This document shows positions 41,281-59,708 of a stretch of DNA of 64,000 nt, piece after piece. The stretch spans positions 162,817 through 226,816 of the forward strand of contig JBAYJB010000001.1 of assembly GCA_041665325.1 (NCBI GenBank), read 5' to 3'. Under the pieces are notes generated by a model. The model made no database searches. It had not been told where the DNA came from and saw only the letters and a list, made by a program, of their open reading frames with translations. Both the position numbers and the translations under genes were made by a program. This DNA is from Minisyncoccota bacterium (GTDB taxonomy: Bacteria > Patescibacteriota > Minisyncoccia > Phycocordibacterales > PALSA-1337). The stretch's first letter is position 1. Each line of letters opens with the position of its first letter.

Positions 41281-41315
41281 AAAAAGGCCCGGGAGGTTTG
41301 CACCACCCGGGACCT
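41281..41315 (-). terminator. Rho-independent terminator downstream of ORF 41335..41883
   Basis: Minus-strand CCCGGG-tggtgcaaacct-CCCGGG followed by CCTTTTTATATAT. Confidence 0.4.
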
Positions 41316-41334
41316 GGAAAGATCGTCGCGTCGC

Positions 41335-41883
41335 TTAGCTCGACAAGAGCCGGTAGAGGAAGAAGGGCATGAATTTCATGGCCGCTTCCCTGCTCCACCA
41401 TTTTCCCCACGAGCGCGTGCGAGTCTGCCTTGAATCCGCGCAGAACCAATACTCCAGAGGGACCTTGTTCACTGCGCGGGAATAGGTGACCTCGATGTCC
41501 GCACCGACTTCGCGGATCGTCGCCGTCAGATCCCTCATACAACGCCGGAGATGGGGCTTCGCCGCCACGACGATGATCCTGTTCACGCCTTGACGTATGG
41601 CCCACCTCACGGCACCCCGTGCCACCTGTAAGGTGGTTGGAGTGTGTCGGGAAGATTCGCTCAGATATTCCACAGGAATATCGAGCTGACCAATCGACTC
41701 GATGCGCACATTTGCTTGAGTGAAGACCGGCAGGAGCCTATGATCAGGCTGACCGAGATGTCTAGACGCATCACGAGCGATCTCGGCAATGAACATGTTG
41801 GGAGGGATGGTTGAGGGCGTGCCGAAAGCAAACGCCACTACACCACTGACAAGCGGAGCTACTTTAGCTGATTGAGTTTTCAA
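41335..41883 (-). CDS. DUF218 (YdcF/SanA/ElyC-family) domain protein
   Basis: RIIVVAAKPHLRRC resembles the DUF218 core (VIVTSAYHMPRA). N-terminal hydrophobic segment. Confidence 0.45.
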   Translation of the reverse strand: MKTQSAKVAPLVSGVVAFAFGTPSTIPPNMFIAEIARDASRHLGQPDHRLLPVFTQANVRIESIGQLDIPVEYLSESSRHTPTTLQVARGAVRWAIRQGVNRIIVVAAKPHLRRCMRDLTATIREVGADIEVTYSRAVNKVPLEYWFCADSRQTRTRSWGKWWSREAAMKFMPFFLYRLLSS

Positions 41884-41985
41884 ATATCACCTATGGGTTG
41901 AATTTTCGTCTTAAAATAGTTTGGATTGCCAGAAATGAATATACCACACTTGATAGTATATGTAAATAGTTATTGCCTTATGCTC

Positions 41986-42062
41986 TGGTGCACCCTGCAG
42001 GGCTCGAACCTGCGACCTCGCCCGTGTGAAGGGCGCGCTCTAGCCAACTGAGCTAAGGGTGC
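41986..42062 (-). tRNA. tRNA-Val (anticodon CAC), CCA encoded
   Basis: GCACCCT-TA-GCTC-AGTTGGCTA-GAGC-G-CGCCC-TTCACAC-GGGCG-AGGTC-GCAGG-TTCGAGC-CCTGC-AGGGTGC-A-CCA. Cloverleaf with all stems Watson-Crick paired. Confidence 0.8.
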
Positions 42063-42093
42063 ATGAATCTAAAAAAATTTGGGAATTTTCAAA

Positions 42094-42167
42094 TGGTCGG
42101 GCTGCCGGGAATCGAACCCGGACCGCATCCACCCCATGGATGTATACTACCACTATACTACAGCCCG
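42094..42167 (-). tRNA. tRNA-Pro (anticodon GGG), CCA encoded
   Basis: CGGGCTG-TA-GTAT-AGTGGTA-GTAT-A-CATCC-ATGGGGT-GGATG-CGGTC-CGGGT-TCGATTC-CCGGC-AGCCCGA-CCA. Confidence 0.75.
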
Positions 42168-42337
42168 ATCGGCGCGCCGGAGACAAAGCGGCCTGCGTAG
42201 CTTACTTTATTTTTGAGATTTCCTCAAATTGTGCTACATTATCACGGTTCGAGTAGGGCCTATACTCGCTTCGCTCGTTGAGGCCCGTCGCTCGGACGCT
42301 GTGAATGATGAGAACATCATTCACACGATCCTCGCTA

Positions 42338-42408
42338 GGGCCTATAGTAAAATGGTATTACGCGTCCATGGCATGGACGAAGCCCGGGTTCGATTCCCGG
42401 TAGGTCCA
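42338..42408 (+). tRNA. tRNA-Ala (anticodon GGC), no encoded CCA
   Basis: GGGCCTA-TA-GTAA-AATGGTA-TTAC-G-CGTCC-ATGGCAT-GGACG-AAGC-CCGGG-TTCGATT-CCCGG-TAGGTCC-A. The G3:U70 Ala identity pair is present. Confidence 0.75.
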
Positions 42409-42445
42409 CTCAAAGAAACATTATTTTCTATATTCCGAATAAATT

Positions 42446-43870
42446 TTAATTGCTTTTTAAGATAAATCGAATCGAGAATTCGTCGCTCTTTCTAAGTAAT
42501 TTTTCCCCTTGTAATTGTAATTCGGTTACATAATTTGATGAAGAAACCAAACCATCTTTGAAAACCTTAAATCCTAAAACATGGCACTTTGCCTCAGACA
42601 TTGATCGTTTTATTTTATTCTCTAGAGAAAAAGAAGCCATACCAAACGCATCAGTAGATAGACTTTTTATAAGTGAAGGCTGTTGGTGCAAACCCTGATA
42701 ACGCGGGTCTTCAGCCTGAATACAGAAAACATCGATCTTTGACGAAATAATCGCTCTTGAAAGCGAGTCGTTGACTTTTACAGTAATTTTGGAAGGATAG
42801 AGTTGGTTCATATCAGAAATTCCCCTACTCCTAAATCGCATGTCAGAATGATAAAGGTTCTCGTTGATAATATAAATTGAAAGAGGACCAAAAGCCGCTT
42901 TTCGGAAACCATCTTGATAAGTAAGCATTATATCCCTTAGATATTCTTCCGACAAAGAAACGACAGGAATTTTGGGAGAGATGTTGGAATTGTCAATGGC
43001 ATTTGGATAAACATAGTATTCGGGAATGGCAACTCCGTAAGTATGTGCAACCTCATGTGAAAGAGTTTGTACTAGTAATGAATAAAAACCAGAATTAGGG
43101 CTTAGATCATTGCTCGAGTCAGCTAAATGAAGTGACTCATTTCCTAGAAATATTGTTGGTGGGGCACCTTGGACTGTATAGGCACTTGTGATTGCTCCAG
43201 GAATGCCATATACGACCAATGCACCAGGGGTGTAATATTGTGAGTCGGCAATTATATTTGCACATCCATTTACACAAGTATCTGGATTATATGTTTTTAG
43301 ACCAGCAAAAGAAAAAATTTTCTTCGTACCTGAATAAACAAAATTGATCCCATCAACAAAAGAAGAAAGGACTTGTGATAAATCCTTTCGAGTCTCTAGA
43401 TATTTATCAGGCATTACAAAAAGAATTTTCTCGGATTTTGTTTCTACAAAATCTGCAGTAATCCGTGTTCCTGAAACTTTATCTATACCATCTAAATCAA
43501 AAGAGCTCCCGTAAATAGGGATCACTCTATACTCGTATGTGACACCACGCTCCACATCATAATCAATAGCAAAATCACCTCCCGCATTAGAAACGGTTGG
43601 TATATTTTTAAAGGAAGAAAGACTATTACCTTCAACATTTGCTCGAGCGAGCGCATAACTTGAAGGCTTTGGAGTTACAGGATTCCACTCAATATATATC
43701 GCACTACCTAGACCGTTATTCTTAGCAGTAATAGTCAACTGTGCGGGCTGGCAAGATGTACCCCTACATTCATTCCCGTTTTTGTTAAAACTAAATGGCA
43801 GAAGACCTGAAAAAAGAAGAACAAAAAACAATAGGCCAGCCCCGATAACGTAAATATATTCTTTTTTCAT
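42446..43870 (-). CDS. Secreted putative zinc metallopeptidase (HExxH) with an N-terminal FN3-like region; encoded on a strongly AT-rich segment
   Basis: Signal/TM YIYVIGAGLLFFVLLFSGLL. HEVAH motif in LVQTLSHEVAHTYGV. The sequence composition is markedly AT-rich compared with the flanks by eye. It sits immediately 3' of tRNA-Ala. Confidence 0.5.
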   Translation of the reverse strand: MKKEYIYVIGAGLLFFVLLFSGLLPFSFNKNGNECRGTSCQPAQLTITAKNNGLGSAIYIEWNPVTPKPSSYALARANVEGNSLSSFKNIPTVSNAGGDFAIDYDVERGVTYEYRVIPIYGSSFDLDGIDKVSGTRITADFVETKSEKILFVMPDKYLETRKDLSQVLSSFVDGINFVYSGTKKIFSFAGLKTYNPDTCVNGCANIIADSQYYTPGALVVYGIPGAITSAYTVQGAPPTIFLGNESLHLADSSNDLSPNSGFYSLLVQTLSHEVAHTYGVAIPEYYVYPNAIDNSNISPKIPVVSLSEEYLRDIMLTYQDGFRKAAFGPLSIYIINENLYHSDMRFRSRGISDMNQLYPSKITVKVNDSLSRAIISSKIDVFCIQAEDPRYQGLHQQPSLIKSLSTDAFGMASFSLENKIKRSMSEAKCHVLGFKVFKDGLVSSSNYVTELQLQGEKLLRKSDEFSIRFILKSN

Positions 43871-43927
43871 ATAATGGCACTATTATACAACTCTTTAAAG
43901 CAAATGATATAATGACACCATAAAACA

Positions 43928-44515
43928 ATGATGACTGATTTCATCTTGGGAGCGACGGCCGCGGTCATAGCTTACGAGCTGTATTTATATCAGGGGGCTT
44001 CATCATCCATATCGATTTGGGGCGCGACTTTTGTCTTGATCTCATTGTCAGCGTTGTTGGGGGGTATCTATCACGGCGCACGGCATATCGCCGGAGAAAG
44101 ATTCAACCGCTACACATGGAAGGCAGTCCTCTACGCCTTAGCCGGAGCGAGCTTCCTGTTCCTGTGCGCCGCATCATTCACTGTTCCGGTTGCTACTGTG
44201 AAAATTGCTCTCATCATCTTCGCGGCCATCAAATTGCTCATCTCCATCGGAGCGATCTATTCTTCCGACAGATTCCGTATGGTGATGTATGACTATCTGA
44301 TCTCTATGGTGATAACGGCTGTGCTCTATAGCCTATTTATGCCGCCACATGCGACGCTCTGGTTCGCCACTGGGATGATCATGTCTCTCATCGCATCGGC
44401 GATCCAACTCCGGAAGATCGCCCCCAAGCGCTATCTCGATCACAATGACATATATCACCTTCTCCAAGCCCTGGCGCTCATCATGATGTACAAGGGCATC
44501 ATAGCCGCGCTCTGA
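43928..44515 (+). CDS. Hypothetical polytopic membrane protein (about 6 TM)
   Basis: 195 aa, hydrophobic throughout, with no recognised motif. Confidence 0.5.
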   Translation: MMTDFILGATAAVIAYELYLYQGASSSISIWGATFVLISLSALLGGIYHGARHIAGERFNRYTWKAVLYALAGASFLFLCAASFTVPVATVKIALIIFAAIKLLISIGAIYSSDRFRMVMYDYLISMVITAVLYSLFMPPHATLWFATGMIMSLIASAIQLRKIAPKRYLDHNDIYHLLQALALIMMYKGIIAAL

Positions 44516-44577
44516 AAACAAAAGGCCGCCTTCCCTCTTTTGAGAGTCGGCGGCGGAATGATAACTTCGGGTGTGAT

Positions 44578-45603
44578 CTAAGCCTTGATGAGCTTGGCTT
44601 CGATCTGCGCCGGAGTGGGCACTCTGACGTCCCACACTGAACCGAACATCTGGTGCAACTTGATGACCAGATAGCTGGCATCGCTCCAACGGTGCAGGAT
44701 GGCATGGACAGCCGACCACGCAAAGGCATGATGGCCGTTGTGAGCCCCCTCACCAAGAGTGATGAGCATGACGAACCAGTTATCCCTCGACTCATCCGGG
44801 CTCTTGAAGGTCTTCTTGCCCCAGATGTGGCAGATGCTATTGACCGACCACGTGTTGTGCTGGACAAAGAACAGGCTGATGAGCCCTCCCCACAGGAAAC
44901 CGCGCCAGACGCCCAACAGAGACGATTCGTGAATGAAACCGAGCAGTGCCGGCAGGATCCCGCTTAGGACCATCCACAATACGGTGTGCCGATCGACGAA
45001 GCAGATCACCTCGTCTTTGCGGAGCCGTTCGGTACAGCCATTCTCTATAACCTGGTTCCTTGAGAACAGCCAGACGAAATGGGCGTGCCAGAATCCCTTG
45101 AAGAGAGCCAGGGGGCTCGTACCGAACATCCAGGGAGAGTGCGGGTCACCTTCAGCATCGCTGCACTGATGATGCTTGCTGTGCTTCGAGCACCAAGCAA
45201 GCGGAGTGCCCTGATACGCAGCTGAGCCGCAGGCGCCCCAGAAGATCTTGAAGGCCTTGCTGGCCTTGAACGATTCGTGGGTGAAAAGCCTATGGAAAGC
45301 GATAGTGATGCCGAGCTCTCTGAATATGCAGGAAAGGAAGAGGAGCGATAAGTAGAACAGATCGACCCCCTCTCCCCAGATCTGCCATATCCCATAGATC
45401 ACAGCCAGGAATGGAAAAATAACAAGGGCGAGGACGAATCCCCGCCCGAATCGATCGAGTGGATGATCGATATGTTCTGCTTGTGGCAGAACTAGTTGCG
45501 GAGTATTCATGCGATGAAGGAGGAACTCGAAGGTATTTCGAGGAGCTCTGTGATCATCATAACATTGAAAATTGGATTTGCCCCGTTTGTGGCGGATCGG
45601 CAC
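44578..45603 (-). CDS. Acyl-CoA/acyl-lipid delta-9-type fatty acid desaturase (possible alternative start MNTPQ at 45510)
   Basis: Three His boxes in canonical order and spacing: HRLFTH, HSKHH, HNGHHAF. 4 TM segments. Stearoyl-CoA desaturase-like layout. Confidence 0.8.
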   Translation of the reverse strand: MPIRHKRGKSNFQCYDDHRAPRNTFEFLLHRMNTPQLVLPQAEHIDHPLDRFGRGFVLALVIFPFLAVIYGIWQIWGEGVDLFYLSLLFLSCIFRELGITIAFHRLFTHESFKASKAFKIFWGACGSAAYQGTPLAWCSKHSKHHQCSDAEGDPHSPWMFGTSPLALFKGFWHAHFVWLFSRNQVIENGCTERLRKDEVICFVDRHTVLWMVLSGILPALLGFIHESSLLGVWRGFLWGGLISLFFVQHNTWSVNSICHIWGKKTFKSPDESRDNWFVMLITLGEGAHNGHHAFAWSAVHAILHRWSDASYLVIKLHQMFGSVWDVRVPTPAQIEAKLIKA

Positions 45604-45628
45604 CGAAATATGCTATCGTAACGGACAT

Positions 45629-45699
45629 CGGGGCGTAGTATAGTGGTAGTATACACGCTTCGGGTGCGTGAGGTCCGAGTTCGATTCTCGGCGCCCCGA
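45629..45699 (+). tRNA. tRNA-Pro (anticodon CGG), no encoded CCA
   Basis: CGGGGCG-TA-GTAT-AGTGGTA-GTAT-A-CACGC-TTCGGGT-GCGTG-AGGT-CCGAG-TTCGATT-CTCGG-CGCCCCG-A. Confidence 0.75.
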
Positions 45700-45730
45700 C
45701 AAGTATGGTTTAGTCATTCGCTCCTCGCTA

Positions 45731-45801
45731 GGGCCCGTAGTAAAGTGGTATTACGCGGCATTCGCATTGCCGAAGCGGGAGTCCGATTCTCCCCGGGTCC
45801 A
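45731..45801 (+). tRNA. tRNA-Ala (anticodon CGC), no encoded CCA
   Basis: GGGCCCG-TA-GTAA-AGTGGTA-TTAC-G-CGGCA-TTCGCAT-TGCCG-AAGC-GGGAG-TCCGATT-CTCCC-CGGGTCC-A. G3:U70 present. Confidence 0.75.
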
Positions 45802-45811
45802 CAAAGTAAAA

Positions 45812-45845
45812 GGCCGGACTTTGTGGGTCCGGCCTCGAGGGGATT
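45812..45845 (-). terminator. Rho-independent terminator for the small gene 45845..46096
   Basis: Minus-strand GGCCGGAC-ccacaaa-GTCCGGCC followed by TTTTACTTTG. Confidence 0.4.
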
Positions 45846-46096
45846 CAGGCTACATGCAGCTCTTTCTCAAGCTGACTCTTGAAGGCTTTAGCTTGGTCCA
45901 TGGCCTTGGCCGATTCCGAGAATTCGACCAGGAGACATTCAAGGACCATCAATTTCTCCCTGTCTTCGATCATATGAAGATCTTGCAGGGACTTTGCCAA
46001 ATTTTCCTCAAGAGTGCCTAGAACTTGCTCTAGGAACTTCATCCTAGATTCCAGATGAGAAAGCCTCTGGATTAAAAGCTTCTTTCTAAGGTTCAT
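45845..46096 (-). CDS. Small hypothetical coiled-coil protein (83 aa) between tRNA genes
   Basis: Predicted helical, lower GC than its surroundings, and an own terminator. Confidence 0.4.
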   Translation of the reverse strand: MNLRKKLLIQRLSHLESRMKFLEQVLGTLEENLAKSLQDLHMIEDREKLMVLECLLVEFSESAKAMDQAKAFKSQLEKELHVA

Positions 46097-46173
46097 ATGA
46101 AGATATTATACTACCTTATAACCTATTTGTCAAGGAGCTGAAAACCTCATTTTGCTGTATCCTTTGTGACACT

Positions 46174-46246
46174 GGGCCTGTAGCTCACCTGGTAGAGCGC
46201 CTCATTTGCAATGAGGAGGTAAGCGGTTCGAGTCCGCTCAGGTCCA
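46174..46246 (+). tRNA. tRNA-Ala (anticodon UGC), no encoded CCA
   Basis: GGGCCTG-TA-GCTC-ACCTGGTA-GAGC-G-CCTCA-TTTGCAA-TGAGG-AGGTA-AGCGG-TTCGAGT-CCGCT-CAGGTCC-A. G3:U70 present. Confidence 0.8.
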
Positions 46247-46247
46247 C

Positions 46248-46285
46248 ATACAAAAAAAAGCGCGACCGTGGTGGCCGCGCTGAAC
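46248..46285 (-). terminator. Rho-independent terminator for ORF 46301..46924
   Basis: Minus-strand AGCGCGGCC-accac-GGTCGCGCT followed by T9. Confidence 0.45.
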
Positions 46286-46300
46286 TGAAAAGAGAAGGAA

Positions 46301-46924
46301 CTAGCGATCGTTGGTGATCCGCCGATAGGCAGGCAATTCGAATTTGACCGGCTTCGCGGGCAGTGATCGCCAGGGAGAAGCCTGCGCTGGGATCCCCGAC
46401 ACCTCCGACGACGGAGCTGAATCCCCCACCATTGCCATCTCCACCAGCGGGCGTTCCGAATCCGGGTCTTCCGGCGGAACTACCGACGGATGAGGCACAC
46501 TGGGCCATTTTTCGTAATCAATACTGCCCAGAATGTCCTGGAGCTGTTTGGCTGTGGGATCACATGATTCACACACCTGCTGTCCCCTGACCTTTCTGCC
46601 TGACTTGGCCAAGGCCGAGAGTAGATGACGCTTTGGGTCCATCGGGCACTTGAACCAATTCCGGCCGAGGCGTGGAACTTGCCACGGCTCAAGGATGATG
46701 TTGTATCGGAGACAAACCCTCCAGAAACCGCCGCAAGATAGGACGAGCAATATCCAACCTGATCGTTCCCCATAGAGGCGAAGGATGAACCACGCGAACA
46801 GAAAAGCGACGACGAGAAGGCAGGAGGTGAAATCACGGAGATCATATTCCTTGAAACCGAGGTAACGCGTCGAGGCATTGATCGCCCACGCCTTGTAAGG
46901 CGCAGATATTTGCGAGAATCTCAT
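46301..46924 (-). CDS. Hypothetical membrane protein with a CPxD...CxxC zinc-ribbon-like motif
   Basis: Two TM helices, then FKCPMDPKRH...CESCDP. 207 aa. An overlapping alternative-frame ORF (46480..46878) is attributed to GC-richness. Confidence 0.4.
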   Translation of the reverse strand: MRFSQISAPYKAWAINASTRYLGFKEYDLRDFTSCLLVVAFLFAWFILRLYGERSGWILLVLSCGGFWRVCLRYNIILEPWQVPRLGRNWFKCPMDPKRHLLSALAKSGRKVRGQQVCESCDPTAKQLQDILGSIDYEKWPSVPHPSVVPPEDPDSERPLVEMAMVGDSAPSSEVSGIPAQASPWRSLPAKPVKFELPAYRRITNDR

Positions 46925-55922: not shown

Positions 55923-56729
55923 TCACTTCTTGAGCTTGGCGGCCGGTCGCGCGTCGACCATGACCCAACGCAAGCTGTAGATATTCACCTGCGGCGTGAA
56001 GATGATCGTGTCGAAAGGATCGGCCGGATCCGTAGCCAGAGAGACGATCACACCGAGCGGTCCATTGCTCAAGGAAGGATCATTGACCGCATCCCCGACG
56101 AGGAGCGCTGTGCCGTGCGGCACATCTGCCCGGTATTGTCCCCCGCCCTGACCTACCGCCGTAGCTGGGACATGGTTCGCGCCGATCAGGACGTTATACC
56201 TCTCTCCCGGCGAGGAATATAGAGCTATTTTCGAGGTTTGGCTTAGGACCTCGACGGCGCGACCGATGAGGATATTGCCAGGCGCGTAGACACGGGTGGT
56301 AGTCGAGATCCCGTCATCGGCGCCGAGGTCGATGATGAGCTCGTCATAAGGCATGAATGGCGGGCGGGCCAAAACAGCCGCCAACTTAAACGGTGTGGTC
56401 GAGGCGCGATAGAACATCGCCTTGAGCTCTTGGTTCTCGACGAGGATCGCGCCGATGGTCGAACTAGCAATATTCTGCTTGAGACTGTCCAGCTGGAATT
56501 TGAGCTCCTCGTTATCCTTGAGCAGTTCCGCGGGCGACCTCAAGGCGCCGCTTTGAATGGAAAAAGACATCCGCCAGAAGGGCCGCGCGACCGCAGTCAT
56601 GAGACTCGGGAAGGTGTGAGGCGCTCGCCAACTGATGAACAGTACGATGAGCACGACGATGATAGAAATCGTCCAGAACACTCTCGACCGACGCCTGGCC
56701 GGTGAGCTATGAGGAAGAAGGTAAGTCAT
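55923..56729 (-). CDS. mreC: Rod shape-determining protein MreC
   Basis: N-terminal TM, coiled coil (LLKDNEELKFQLDSLKQ), and C-terminal beta domains. Immediately downstream of mreB. Confidence 0.7.
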   Translation of the reverse strand: MTYLLPHSSPARRRSRVFWTISIIVVLIVLFISWRAPHTFPSLMTAVARPFWRMSFSIQSGALRSPAELLKDNEELKFQLDSLKQNIASSTIGAILVENQELKAMFYRASTTPFKLAAVLARPPFMPYDELIIDLGADDGISTTTRVYAPGNILIGRAVEVLSQTSKIALYSSPGERYNVLIGANHVPATAVGQGGGQYRADVPHGTALLVGDAVNDPSLSNGPLGVIVSLATDPADPFDTIIFTPQVNIYSLRWVMVDARPAAKLKK

Positions 56730-57774
56730 CTTCGCTTTCGATGAGGATCGACCGGTAGCGTTCGAGGTCTTCGAGGATGATGCCGGCCCCGCGGGCGATG
56801 GCGGTCAGCGGATCTTCGGCGATCGAGACGGGCAGTTTGAGCGTTTCGGCCAAGAGGATATGAAGGCCTTTGATGAGTGCACCGCCACCGACCAGATATA
56901 TGCCGCGGCGCATGATATCGGAAAGGATCTCGGGAGGTGTGGTCTCGAGGACTTCCTTGGTGGCTTCGACCAAAGTGTCGATCGACTGCCCCATGGCCTC
57001 GCGGATGTCAGAGTCGGTGATCACTACTTCACGCGGCAAGCCGGTGATGAGGTCACGGCCGCGGATAGTGGTCTCGAGAGATTCGTCCAAGACGACAGAG
57101 CCGACGCTCATCTTGACCTGTTCGGCCGTGGTCTCGCCGATCAAGATCTTGAATTCGTTGCGGATATAGGAAATGATGTCGTTGTTGAAGCGGTCGCCGG
57201 CGATCTTGAGATTCTTGGAACGGACGATGCCACCGAGCGAGATCACGGCGATGTCGGTCGTACCGCCGCCGATGTCGATGATCATAGAACCGACCGGATC
57301 GTGGACCGGCAGGCGGATGCCGATCGCCCCAGCCATCGGCTGTTCTACTATATAGACCTCGCGGGCGCCGGCGTTCTTGGTGGCGTCGCGGACGGCGCGC
57401 ACCTCGACGTTGGTCACACCCGAAGGTACGCCGACCACTACGCGCGGACCTAGTAGTCTGTGGGGCATGTATTCGCCGGCACGGCGCATGAGGTATGAGA
57501 GCATCTCTTCGGTGACCTCGAAGTCAGAGATCACCCCGTCGACGAGCGGGCGCACGGCCGTGATATGAGCCGGCGTACGGCCGAGCATCTCCTTGGCGGC
57601 GGCACCAACAGCCACGACTTGACCGGTCTTCTCATTCACGGCTACGACCGAAGGCTCGTTGACGACGATGCCCTTGCCGCGCACATATACGAGAGTGTTA
57701 GCGGTACCGAGATCGATGCCGATATCGTTGGAGAAACGACTAAAAAGCCTGTCTTTGTGATCCTTGAAACTCAT
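56707..57774 (-). CDS. mreB: Rod shape-determining protein MreB
   Basis: IGIDLGTANTLVYV, DIGGGTTDIAV, and the actin-fold motifs. 355 aa. Confidence 0.9.
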   Translation of the reverse strand: MSFKDHKDRLFSRFSNDIGIDLGTANTLVYVRGKGIVVNEPSVVAVNEKTGQVVAVGAAAKEMLGRTPAHITAVRPLVDGVISDFEVTEEMLSYLMRRAGEYMPHRLLGPRVVVGVPSGVTNVEVRAVRDATKNAGAREVYIVEQPMAGAIGIRLPVHDPVGSMIIDIGGGTTDIAVISLGGIVRSKNLKIAGDRFNNDIISYIRNEFKILIGETTAEQVKMSVGSVVLDESLETTIRGRDLITGLPREVVITDSDIREAMGQSIDTLVEATKEVLETTPPEILSDIMRRGIYLVGGGALIKGLHILLAETLKLPVSIAEDPLTAIARGAGIILEDLERYRSILIESEDDLPSSS

Positions 57775-57840: not shown

Positions 57841-58470
57841 TTAACTCTTTTTACTAGGCACAAGGATTACTGATTGCCAAAACGCATCAATGAATTTATT
57901 TTTATCTACGTGCTTAGCCTGTATTGGCGGCAATCCTGGATCGTGAAGAATAAAATTGTCTTCATCCTGACCATAAAGAAGAACGAAGTGAGCATTACTG
58001 CCGTCCCTATCATTAAGACTGTCTGCATTAACAAGGGCAATAACGAATATTTTTTCATTCAAAAGCTTTTCAATCTCACTTCTTGAAATCTCCCGGCATT
58101 CAAAAATATTATGAGTCAAAAGATAGGCCGCATCATTACGTTCCCGTGAAAAGTCAGGAGAGGCCATTCTTTTTTGCTGAGCAAACCACCCCGGAGCATT
58201 TTTCCAAAGCTCTATTAAATAATCTTCTCCTTTTTCAGAAAATTCTTTGTAGTCTAGTTTGCTTACCAATCTAACACCTGGAATTCGTTCGTTAATAGCA
58301 ACAGCCCCTGCTGGCATCCATGAATATAAACCTTCTTGAAAATGGGTCATCTTGTTGACTTCATCCCAGCTTGTATCTTTATTATAGACAAAATCAAGGA
58401 CCATCTTCACACACGCCTGTAGGCAGTGATTATCATCTGACCAATTTGATTGAAACTTTAGTTTTTCCAC
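57841..58470 (-). CDS. Papain-fold cysteine peptidase, C39-like domain protein (AT-rich gene)
   Basis: The Q...C...H...D order fits C39-like peptidases: FQSNW...NHCLQACVKMVL (Gln, Cys), NAHFVLLYG (His), ILHDPG (Asp). No signal peptide. Visibly AT-rich. 3-nt gap after proS. Confidence 0.45.
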   Translation of the reverse strand: MEKLKFQSNWSDDNHCLQACVKMVLDFVYNKDTSWDEVNKMTHFQEGLYSWMPAGAVAINERIPGVRLVSKLDYKEFSEKGEDYLIELWKNAPGWFAQQKRMASPDFSRERNDAAYLLTHNIFECREISRSEIEKLLNEKIFVIALVNADSLNDRDGSNAHFVLLYGQDEDNFILHDPGLPPIQAKHVDKNKFIDAFWQSVILVPSKKS

Positions 58471-58472
58471 TT

Positions 58473-59708
58473 TTACAAACTCGCAATCTTCACCATCTCC
58501 ACCTTCCCCATCAGCCGGTCCTTGGCTTCCACCTCATCATTCTTCAGAGTCTTCTCACTCACGACCAGGCGCCTTGGGATGCCGATCAGATCCGCATCTC
58601 CGAATTTCTCGCCGGCGCCGGCGTCGCGGTCATCGTATAGGACTTCCACGCCTTTTTTAACCAATCTTTCGTACAATCCGTCAGCAGCAGCTTTCACAGT
58701 ACCCTTCTCATCAAAAAGCGCGATGAGATGCACCGCGAACGGCGAGACCGCTTCCGGCCAGACCAACCCGCGCTCATCAGCATGCACCTCGACGATCGTG
58801 CCCATGACACGACCGGGACCGATACCATATGAGCCCATGACCACCGGCTTCGACTTCCCTTCAGCGTCCTTATAATTCAACCCGAATGCATCCGAGAAAC
58901 GCGTACCAAGCGAGAAGATGTTTCCAACCTCAACAGCTTTCTTTTCGACGAGGTCGCTCTTATTGATTCCCAAATCTTTCAAGACCTCTTCATTTAAAAC
59001 TTCTCTATTGATAGCGAGTTTCTTGCCTTCGTGTACGAAAATCGTGTCTTCGCCGGCCTCGAGCACAGTCTGGAACTCATGTGAATATTTCGAGAATGAT
59101 CCGCCGCTAGCAAAAGTCACATAAGTCTGTGCGCCCAGACCGAGACGGTCAAAAATCCGAACATATGCCTGCTTGGCGCGCTCGTAGAATTCGCCGTGAG
59201 ATTTTTCATCGACGTTAAACGAATATAGGTCCTTCATGAGGAACTCGCGGCCGCGCAGGATGCCGGACTTGGCGCGCTCTTCATTCCGGAACTTGGTCTG
59301 GAATTGATAGATAGCCGATGGCAGATCGCGGAACGAGCGCACGTGATCCTTCATAAGCTTAGTCAGCGGCTCTTCGTGCGTGAAGCTTAGGCCCACATCG
59401 GCGCCGCCCTTCAACTTAGTCTTGAACCAGTTGTCTACAACCTCGTCGCTCCAGCGGCCGGTCGTCTCCCAGGTCTTCTTGTCCTGCAGCGCCGTGAGGT
59501 GCACTTCCTGCCCGCCGATAGCGTCCATCTCCTCGCGGATAACGCCGATGATCTTGTTCATAACACGCAGGCCGAGCGGCAGGAATGAGTACACGCCAGC
59601 CATCTCCTTGTTGATATATCCGGCGCGGATGAGGAGTTGGGCGTTCTTGGCGACCTCGTCCTTGGGCGCTTCGCGACGAGTCTTGGTGAATAGGTGTGAT
59701 TGGCGCAT
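58473..59708 (-). CDS. proS: Prolyl-tRNA synthetase, minimal bacterial-type without INS editing domain
   Basis: Class II motifs (REFLMKDLYSF, GSYGIGPGR). Aligns to the E. coli ProRS catalytic and anticodon-binding regions with the INS domain absent. 411 aa. Confidence 0.85.
   Translation of the reverse strand: MRQSHLFTKTRREAPKDEVAKNAQLLIRAGYINKEMAGVYSFLPLGLRVMNKIIGVIREEMDAIGGQEVHLTALQDKKTWETTGRWSDEVVDNWFKTKLKGGADVGLSFTHEEPLTKLMKDHVRSFRDLPSAIYQFQTKFRNEERAKSGILRGREFLMKDLYSFNVDEKSHGEFYERAKQAYVRIFDRLGLGAQTYVTFASGGSFSKYSHEFQTVLEAGEDTIFVHEGKKLAINREVLNEEVLKDLGINKSDLVEKKAVEVGNIFSLGTRFSDAFGLNYKDAEGKSKPVVMGSYGIGPGRVMGTIVEVHADERGLVWPEAVSPFAVHLIALFDEKGTVKAAADGLYERLVKKGVEVLYDDRDAGAGEKFGDADLIGIPRRLVVSEKTLKNDEVEAKDRLMGKVEMVKIASL

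Follow-up and report, generated by a model that had tools for sequence, protein, structure and literature searches.

The 64-kb stretch of Patescibacteria DNA analysed here (hereafter the window; mean GC content 53.1%) carries, at 42446..43870 on the minus strand, an AT-rich coding sequence (CDS) whose predicted 474-aa product is a membrane-anchored, extracellular zinc peptidase of metzincin-like type. This CDS and its promoter probably form a cassette that two or more high-GC lineages obtained by horizontal transfer from low-GC Patescibacteria. An earlier note on this DNA had regarded the gene as horizontally acquired cargo, a view now supported by its outlying GC content, by empty sites in related species, by its absence from 29 related loci and by the occurrence of its homologues in three unrelated genomic contexts. 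The impression that the gene is AT-rich relative to its surroundings was likewise borne out (37% GC against 0.535 ± 0.03 elsewhere in the window), and the GC and codon-usage analysis that had been proposed gave a z-score of about −5, with a GC content at third codon positions (GC3) of 0.27 against 0.67 ± 0.08.

Composition of the AT-Rich Gene

The open reading frame (ORF) at 42446..43870 has a GC fraction of 0.371 and the slightly longer segment 42410..43927 one of 0.362, whereas in the remaining 1425-nt intervals of the window the mean is 0.535 ± 0.030 and the lowest value 0.446, which places the ORF at z = −5.4. GC at codon positions 1, 2 and 3 amounts to 0.455, 0.385 and 0.272, compared with means of 0.567, 0.400 and 0.672 for the 47 other long ORFs of the window, which average 53% GC overall (standard deviation of GC3, 0.082). 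Since the value at second positions is normal and that at third positions extreme, the deficit lies at synonymous sites, that is in codon usage, and amino-acid composition could be rejected as the source of the low GC content. This ORF is the strongest compositional outlier within the 64 kb, and the GC boundaries of the AT-rich segment are sharp, at ~42410 and ~43950.

Insertion into a Conserved tRNA Array

The genes for tRNA were called by ARAGORN and Rfam, and an Rfam scan of 41800-46400 returned six tRNAs alone above threshold. Two of these, tRNA-Val(CAC) (41986-42062) and tRNA-Pro(GGG) (42094-42167), are encoded on the minus strand. The other four lie on the plus strand: tRNA-Ala(GGC) (42338-42409; 63 bits in Rfam), its ancestral downstream neighbour tRNA-Pro(CGG) (45629-45700), tRNA-Ala(CGC) (45731-45802) and tRNA-Ala(TGC) (46174-46247). 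The AT-rich gene and tRNA-Ala(GGC) are convergent, with the stop codon of the former 36 nt from the 3′ end of the latter. The gene had previously been placed beside a tRNA cluster; it does adjoin the 3′ end of tRNA-Ala(GGC), but it actually resides inside a six-tRNA array, three members of which follow at 45629-46247.

Twenty-nine related loci from GTDB species representatives, retrieved with the flanking G6PD gene, were compared with the window; a query with the neighbouring DUF6962 protein had found none. All 29 belong to Patescibacteria (labelled Paceibacteria, Taylorbacteria, Parcubacteria and similar), and their G6PD proteins are 52-76% identical to that of the window (64-76% in 28 of the 29). 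In seven species (L008, L012, L013, L016, L017, L022 and L024), tRNA-Ala(GGC) and tRNA-Pro(CGG) are separated by a spacer of just 1-51 nt, and the tRNA-Pro(CGG) of the window is 100% identical to the copies in L008, L012 and L024. The three closest relatives (L008, L012 and L013) also display, upstream of G6PD, the order Ala(CGC), Pro(CGG), Ala(GGC), Pro(GGG), Val(CAC) that is found in the window. In the window, by contrast, the same pair is split by 3,219 nt (42410..45628) holding three genes, and an insertion into a conserved tRNA array is thus documented. None of these three genes was found by tblastn in any of the 29 related loci. The synteny comparison suggested in the earlier note therefore yielded no orthologue at this position, and an uninterrupted tRNA pair, or empty site, in seven species.

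Only one of the three inserted genes is AT-rich, so that the description of a single-gene island holds for composition and fails for the insertion as a whole. The second gene (43928..44515, plus strand) encodes a multi-pass membrane protein of the DUF6962 family (Pfam, 2e-33) and the third (44578..45603, minus strand) a fatty-acid desaturase (Pfam FA_desaturase, 1.4e-13) whose start codon is either the GTG at 45603 or an ATG at 45510. Both are native-like in composition, with GC3 values of 0.66 and 0.71, respectively. A search of 5.8 billion protein clusters at E ≤ 1e-10 with the DUF6962 protein recovered the strain variant alone, and no match was obtained among GTDB representatives. A fatty-acid desaturase is unusual for a genome of the candidate phyla radiation (CPR). 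These two lineage-specific neighbours probably were inserted separately from the AT-rich gene, or else came from a donor of similar composition.

The junctions joining the DUF6962 gene, the AT-rich gene, tRNA-Ala and tRNA-Pro were also found in a strain of 98% identity, in each of three assemblies made independently, L001 (ENA), L002 (JGI) and L003 (Logan), and an assembly chimera was rejected on this basis. Over 14 kb, the window and L001 are about 96% identical, and the island itself, at 97.5-100% identity, is as conserved between the strains as its flanks are. The island is therefore older than the split of the two strains.

Homologues in Unrelated Contexts and the Probable Direction of Transfer

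Close homologues of the AT-rich gene product are rare, with only four among the 5.8 billion protein clusters. They comprise the strain variant (P0001, 98% identity), a protein from a metagenome-assembled genome labelled Patescibacteria (P0002, 74%), and two further proteins of 70% (P0003) and 69% identity (P0004), the last extended at its N-terminus by an additional Ig-like region. Among the remote homologues, the nearest (P0006) shares 30% identity and is encoded on a contig of 36% GC. The copies occupy three unrelated contexts, the first of which is the locus of the window and L001. In the second (L004, encoding P0004), the gene is preceded by a response regulator gene and by MNT/HepT, a toxin-antitoxin pair, and is followed by a T2SSE ATPase gene. 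With 36-38% GC in the gene and 55-60% GC in its flanks, L004 shows that a further high-GC genome also has such an AT-rich island. The third context (L005/L037, encoding P0002) belongs to a genome of 35.6% GC, in which the composition of the gene matches its surroundings.

At the DNA level, the copies in the different contexts are homologous only over the CDS and some 40 nt of promoter, the homology reaching window position 43912 in the comparison with L005. The region that would travel with the gene as its putative promoter (43871..43912, minus strand) contains a TATAAT box at 43882-43887, 11 nt before the ATG. This distance is 9-12 nt across the contexts, with TATAAT-N9-ATG in L004, and a 19-nt promoter core, GTTGTATAAT(A/G)GTGCCATT, is common to the copies. 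Such close spacing in the window implies a predicted transcript leader that is very short or absent, transcription being expected to start about 5 nt ahead of the ATG.

Between lineages, the ratio of nonsynonymous to synonymous divergence (dN/dS) is 0.18-0.19 and dS itself 0.77-1.2; the gene is therefore functional, and the transfers were not very recent. All known copies have retained GC3 values of 0.23-0.33. Lineage-unique substitutions in the two high-GC hosts are biased from AT to GC, with 79:40 and 104:58 changes in the AT-to-GC and GC-to-AT directions, while those in the lineage of the low-GC genome are balanced (46:39; Fisher p 0.04-0.08). This pattern fits ongoing amelioration, although its statistical significance is marginal. 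The related loci span GC contents from 35% (L026, GC3 0.24) to 57%, and compositionally suitable donors therefore exist among the relatives. The gene most likely came from a donor within the same broad group whose GC content was low (~35%).

A Putative Metzincin-Like Peptidase with a Shifted Zinc Motif

The zinc-motif sequence of the 474-aa product reads LVQTLSHEVAHTYGV. A HMMER search of 1.84 billion cluster representatives with a 5-sequence profile retrieved 48 proteins at E ≤ 1e-3, 19 of them at E ≤ 1e-10, and a further protein search with a 35-sequence profile added almost nothing. AlphaFold (AF2) prediction from the 5-sequence alignment was unusable (pLDDT 35); after the addition of 30 remote homologues, the deeper alignment gave a model with a pLDDT of 86 and a pTM of 0.84.

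The model divides the protein into an FN3-like beta-sandwich (aa ~43-140; 43451..43744), a catalytic domain of metzincin fold (aa ~145-357; 42800..43438) and a C-terminal beta-sandwich resembling transthyretin and CarboxypepD_reg domains (aa ~360-474; 42449..42793), all encoded on the minus strand. They are preceded by a hydrophobic segment (aa 6-26; 43793..43855) that follows K2 and K3 and reaches its Kyte-Doolittle 15-aa maximum of 2.71 at residue 6. This segment would serve as a signal anchor or signal peptide and thereby place the remainder of the protein outside the cell. A signal-like N-terminal segment is present in 29 of 35 family members, P0004 having a typical cleavable signal, and the family is therefore predicted to be extracellular. 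A signal anchor, an FN3-like N-terminal region and the HEVAH motif had already been read from the translation in the earlier note.

Column counts in the 35-sequence alignment define the zinc motif as H272-E273-V-A-H276-T-Y-G279-V-A-I-P283-E284-Y-Y286 (43013..43057). H272, E273 and H276 are invariant (35/35), and G279, P283 and Y286 are found in 30, 29 and 34 members, respectively. Residue 284 is acidic throughout (Glu in 29, Asp in 6), while position 282, the site of the canonical third His or Asp, is occupied by I, V, S, F or G across the family; a HMMER alignment to serralysin sets I282 opposite the third His. The family motif can accordingly be written HExxHxxGxxxP(E/D)xY, and the third zinc ligand is probably Glu/Asp 284, two positions beyond the canonical residue. 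Further conserved positions include D293 (32/35), P299 (34/35) and D313 (33/35). M315 (42926..42928; 34/35), which lies in the context D313-x-M315, within D-(P/I)-M, and 39 residues past H276, is a candidate for the Met-turn methionine and would fulfil that role at a spacing that fits the known Met-turn range.

Several hallmarks of metzincins were recognised in the model and alignment. The HExxH motif is carried by the active-site helix (261-277), which stops just before G279, the residue three positions past the second His, where metzincins have Gly or Asn. The five-stranded sheet, backing helix, active-site helix and C-terminal helix of the fold are all present. Profile searches of the PDB matched serralysins best (E about 0.005), followed by adamalysins, archaemetzincin and matrix metalloproteinases, and the viral structures of BFVD matched only the beta-sandwich domains. 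Among the 35 family members, 16 match Reprolysin_5 weakly (best 7.8e-6) and seven match Reprolysin_3. These are the remote relatives alone, and the window protein itself has no match to the Reprolysin/adamalysin hidden Markov models (HMMs; Pfam Reprolysin_3/4/5, M12B) at E ≤ 10. Accessory domains in the family include CarboxypepD_reg, Big_1, TSP3, CBM60, fn3 and others.

The HMM and structure search that had been proposed thus identified a zincin-type fold, namely that of metzincins, and did not sustain the accompanying suggestion of an M60-like protein, which would be a gluzincin with a Glu ligand supplied by a separate helix downstream of HExxH. The top fold matches are adamalysin- and pappalysin-like metzincins, with no M60 or enhancin structure among them. 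The sole glycopeptidase fold match, Amuc_1438, has a TM-score of about 0.24, and no family member matches Pfam M60. With the fold and HExxHxxG found, and with neither the canonical third ligand nor a match to any existing family HMM, the protein belongs to the metzincin clan as an uncatalogued family, outside M12B, M43, M10 and M64. In function it should be a secreted metzincin-like peptidase, as predicted from its motif and modelled fold.

Proposed Acquisition and Rival Explanations

The proposed course of events may be outlined briefly. A compact cassette, made up of its own promoter and one CDS, would have been acquired by a Paceibacteria-type CPR genome of ~53% GC and have landed in an insertion-tolerant tRNA array close to the 3′ end of tRNA-Ala(GGC). 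Some Patescibacteria are naturally competent, and integration by recombination after DNA uptake would be a plausible route; no recombinase is present. The nearby 183-aa gene described below, with its abrupt drop in identity between the two strains, likewise speaks for recombination at this locus. The product would act as a membrane-tethered or secreted zinc endopeptidase in which H272 and H276 bind zinc, E273 serves as general base, residue 284 supplies the third ligand and M315 forms the Met-turn beneath the metal site. Such an enzyme may cleave extracellular proteins for the benefit of an epibiotic bacterium of little biosynthetic capacity, candidate substrates being the host-cell surface, an environmental protein or the cell's own surface proteins. 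The host- or matrix-directed role considered in the earlier note is likewise a putative one.

A number of observations weigh against this explanation. No integrase, attachment (att) repeat or transposase was found. The desaturase and DUF6962 genes occupy the same slot but have native composition, and the slot may have been filled in one event or in several. The substitution bias is of marginal significance and was derived by parsimony at high divergence. The closest low-GC copy shares only 74% protein identity (dS about 0.77), which means that the transfers were not recent or that the true donors are unsampled. As to the product, Pfam and NCBIfam scans of the window protein returned nothing even at E ≤ 10, and the His/Asp third ligand expected of a metzincin three residues after the Gly is missing from the alignment of 35 family members.

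An unlikely alternative attributes the spread of the gene and its landing near tRNAs to the element itself, which would be either a minimal non-autonomous cassette with terminal inverted repeats or an invertible, phase-variable segment. The copy P0002 (L005-L007) was assembled solely on contigs of ~1.6 kb and 35% GC. In L005, a Logan contig, a perfect 30-nt inverted repeat, GCGGATTTCTTTTTTGATTATGGCGGATTC, at 1-30 and 1647-1676 encloses a 1,616-nt gene segment, which in roughly 10 sample assemblies always stands alone and is never joined to flanks. A 30-kb contig from the same aquifer, the Hainich H43 groundwater (samples ERZ1292626/29/32 and ERR3858118), named L037 (35.6% GC), encoding enolase, pyruvate kinase and other housekeeping genes, starts exactly with this 30-mer, which is 225 nt away from the 3′ end of tRNA-Gly(CCC) on that contig. 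In two of the three contexts, a tRNA 3′ end thus lies within 36-225 nt, and the cassette has the same compact make-up of promoter and CDS every time. Against an element-driven spread, the repeat surrounds the L005 copy only: no inverted repeat of this type was found in the window (allowing ≤3 mismatches), in L004 or in L001, and no transposase or invertase was seen in any context. Moreover, the repeat has been seen at contig ends only. With a coverage of 14 for L037 and 7 for the L005 segment, several origins are conceivable for the pattern: a segment that can invert, an element bounded by terminal inverted repeats, a larger inverted duplication or an assembly-graph effect of the 'lollipop' kind.

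A bolder and doubtful extension of the horizontal-transfer reading would combine these elements. The cassette would then be a recombinase-free mobile unit that circulates among Patescibacteria, lands by tRNA 3′ ends and, in the genome that is its compositional home, has perfect inverted repeats of 30 nt or more on both sides, pointing to a new kind of minimal cargo element mobilised in trans or to an invertible, phase-variable surface-protease locus. Separately, and with the same reserve, the product may define a metzincin family with a shifted Glu/Asp third ligand.

It is improbable that the insertion represents the decayed remnant of a classical tRNA-targeting integrative element, either phage or genomic island, from which the integrase and att sites have since disappeared. 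Like tRNA-associated islands, the locus combines foreign composition, a position directly 3′ of a tRNA gene (36 nt) and empty sites in relatives (seven species), and the L005/L037 context is also tRNA-proximal. Unlike them, it lacks an integrase, an att direct repeat and an element backbone, and its mobile unit would be a promoter-plus-CDS cassette of ~1.47 kb. No tyrosine or serine recombinase and no phage-like gene is encoded in 42410..45628, nor does any other ORF of at least 60 aa there show recombinase features. A repeat search of 41900-44600 revealed no direct repeat of the tRNA-Ala 3′ end, and a tRNA 3′ end repeat is absent from either far boundary. In addition, homology between the contexts stops at the CDS and promoter without any common flanking remnant, no tRNA lies in the 7 kb upstream of the L004 copy, and a second AT-rich island of the window, between mreB and proS (57841-58470), is far from any tRNA. 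A phage origin was rejected: the PHROGs scan of the window protein gave no family, and neither tblastn against phage records nor the IMG/VR scan produced a match. The earlier note's own failure to find an integrase or a direct-repeat scar is thereby confirmed from gene content and repeat search. Of its appeal to tRNA 3′ ends as classical integration sites, the position and the empty site stand, while classical integrase-mediated integration finds no support: the locus has no integrase or att repeat, and the other AT-rich island of the window is remote from tRNAs. The only tRNA-derived repeat detected was an 11-nt copy of the 5′ end of tRNA-Ala(GGC) (TAGGGCCTATA) at 42254-42264, 82 nt upstream of the tRNA.

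A native, vertically inherited gene whose low GC is kept by selection or by local mutational bias (for example through expression level or mRNA structure) would agree with the uniformly low GC3 of all copies despite dS of 0.8-1.2, with purifying selection and with the flank-like identity between the two strains, but is hardly credible and already largely refuted, given that the gene is missing from 29 of 29 related loci, seven with intact empty sites, that it occurs in three unrelated contexts with a composition matching its surroundings in low-GC genomes, and that substitutions in high-GC hosts are biased from AT to GC.

Comparison with Known Peptidase Families

The metzincin consensus reads HExxHxxG/NxxH/D, followed by a Met-turn, and the igalysins (M64) are deviant metzincins in which a shifted motif, HExxHxxxGxxD, provides an acidic third ligand (PMC12237041). 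Horizontal gene transfer (HGT) of the iga gene has also been suspected from its GC content (PMC12237041). The igalysins, which include the IgAse of Thomasclavelia ramosa (PDB 3P1V/4DF9), are thus an earlier case in which a shift of the zinc motif sets a metzincin family apart. One member of the present family weakly matches Pfam Peptidase_M64 (0.0045), and the PDB profile search lists 3p1v with E = 0.5.

The adamalysins/reprolysins (M12B) and pappalysins (M43), exemplified by atrolysin C, ADAM8/17, ulilysin and mirolysin, share just 12-16% sequence identity with the window protein. They differ from its family, which has I/V/S/F/G at the third-ligand site and an invariant acid five residues after the Gly. 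The window protein also lacks disintegrin and Cys-rich modules and a recognisable prodomain, its catalytic domain being flanked instead by FN3-like and transthyretin-like domains. In the alignment with the serralysins (M10B), HElGHtyGlgvPEyY stands against HEIGHTLGLSHPGDY; the match is weak and does not extend beyond the motif, and the window protein has neither the third His nor RTX repeats. A survey of the literature on CPR, HGT and metallopeptidases found nothing specific.

Significance of the Acquired Gene

The CPR/Patescibacteria are mostly uncultured epibionts with tiny genomes, and their gene gain and surface display towards hosts are poorly known. The phenomenon described here, with its foreign composition, tRNA neighbour and empty site, is of a well-known kind and does not overturn current understanding. 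Its value lies in being a clean, polarised example of gene gain, in which a seven-species empty site is accompanied by foreign composition and a readable direction of amelioration. The acquisition of an extracellular protease gene suggests that low-GC relatives serve high-GC lineages as a gene pool. The uncatalogued metzincin branch, with its shifted zinc motif and about 48 cluster representatives among 1.84 billion proteins, is a reasonable target for structural and enzymological work, and one remaining lead is offered by the inverted repeats that enclose the low-GC genome's copy.

Further Observations on the Locus

Variation in the tRNA array extends beyond the insertion described above. Across the related species, the slot between tRNA-Ala(TGC) and tRNA-Ala(CGC) holds 0.3 to 7.3 kb of unrelated cargo (window 45803-46173; L008 1267-8590; L012 2412-3673), which in L008 includes a 1,112-aa DUF2341/EF-hand protein and three other ORFs. 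Because the cargo of this second slot differs between species, the array behaves as a variable region, and it appears to be a general insertion-tolerant region in the clade.

The clade has tRNA-Ala(GGC) genes of two types. One, 72 nt long and with a short D-arm, is present in the window (42338-42409), L016 (8626-8697) and L022 (7792-7863) and resembles the tRNA-Ala(CGC) and tRNA-Pro genes of the window, while the closest G6PD relatives L008 (8854-8927), L012 and L013 have the canonical 74-nt form; the spread of the two types is out of step with G6PD similarity. The tRNA-Ala(GGC) of the window is 77% complementary over 65 nt to the opposite-strand tRNA-Pro(GGG) gene, so that the two tRNAs are ~77% alike. 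The 170-nt gap between these two genes contains a 26-nt imperfect hairpin (42285-42340) directly before tRNA-Ala(GGC).

Between tRNA-Val and G6PD, a 183-aa ORF (41335..41883, minus strand) without any match in a Pfam scan shows only ~72% nucleotide and 64% protein identity between the window and L001. The divergent stretch runs from 41307 to 41903, and both its flanks are ~99% identical. Either an allelic replacement with sharp boundaries or a hypervariable gene could account for this, and the abrupt change from ~99% to ~72% identity is evidence of active recombination at the locus.

Finally, the second AT-rich single-gene island of the window, at 57841-58470 on the minus strand, is likewise sharply bounded (GC about 0.38, GC3 0.31) and has no tRNA close by. 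It is placed between mreB (56707-57774) and the prolyl-tRNA synthetase gene proS (58473-59708). Its product of 187-209 aa gives a weak match to Peptidase_C39 (3.9e-5), and the gene is likewise foreign-looking and peptidase-like.

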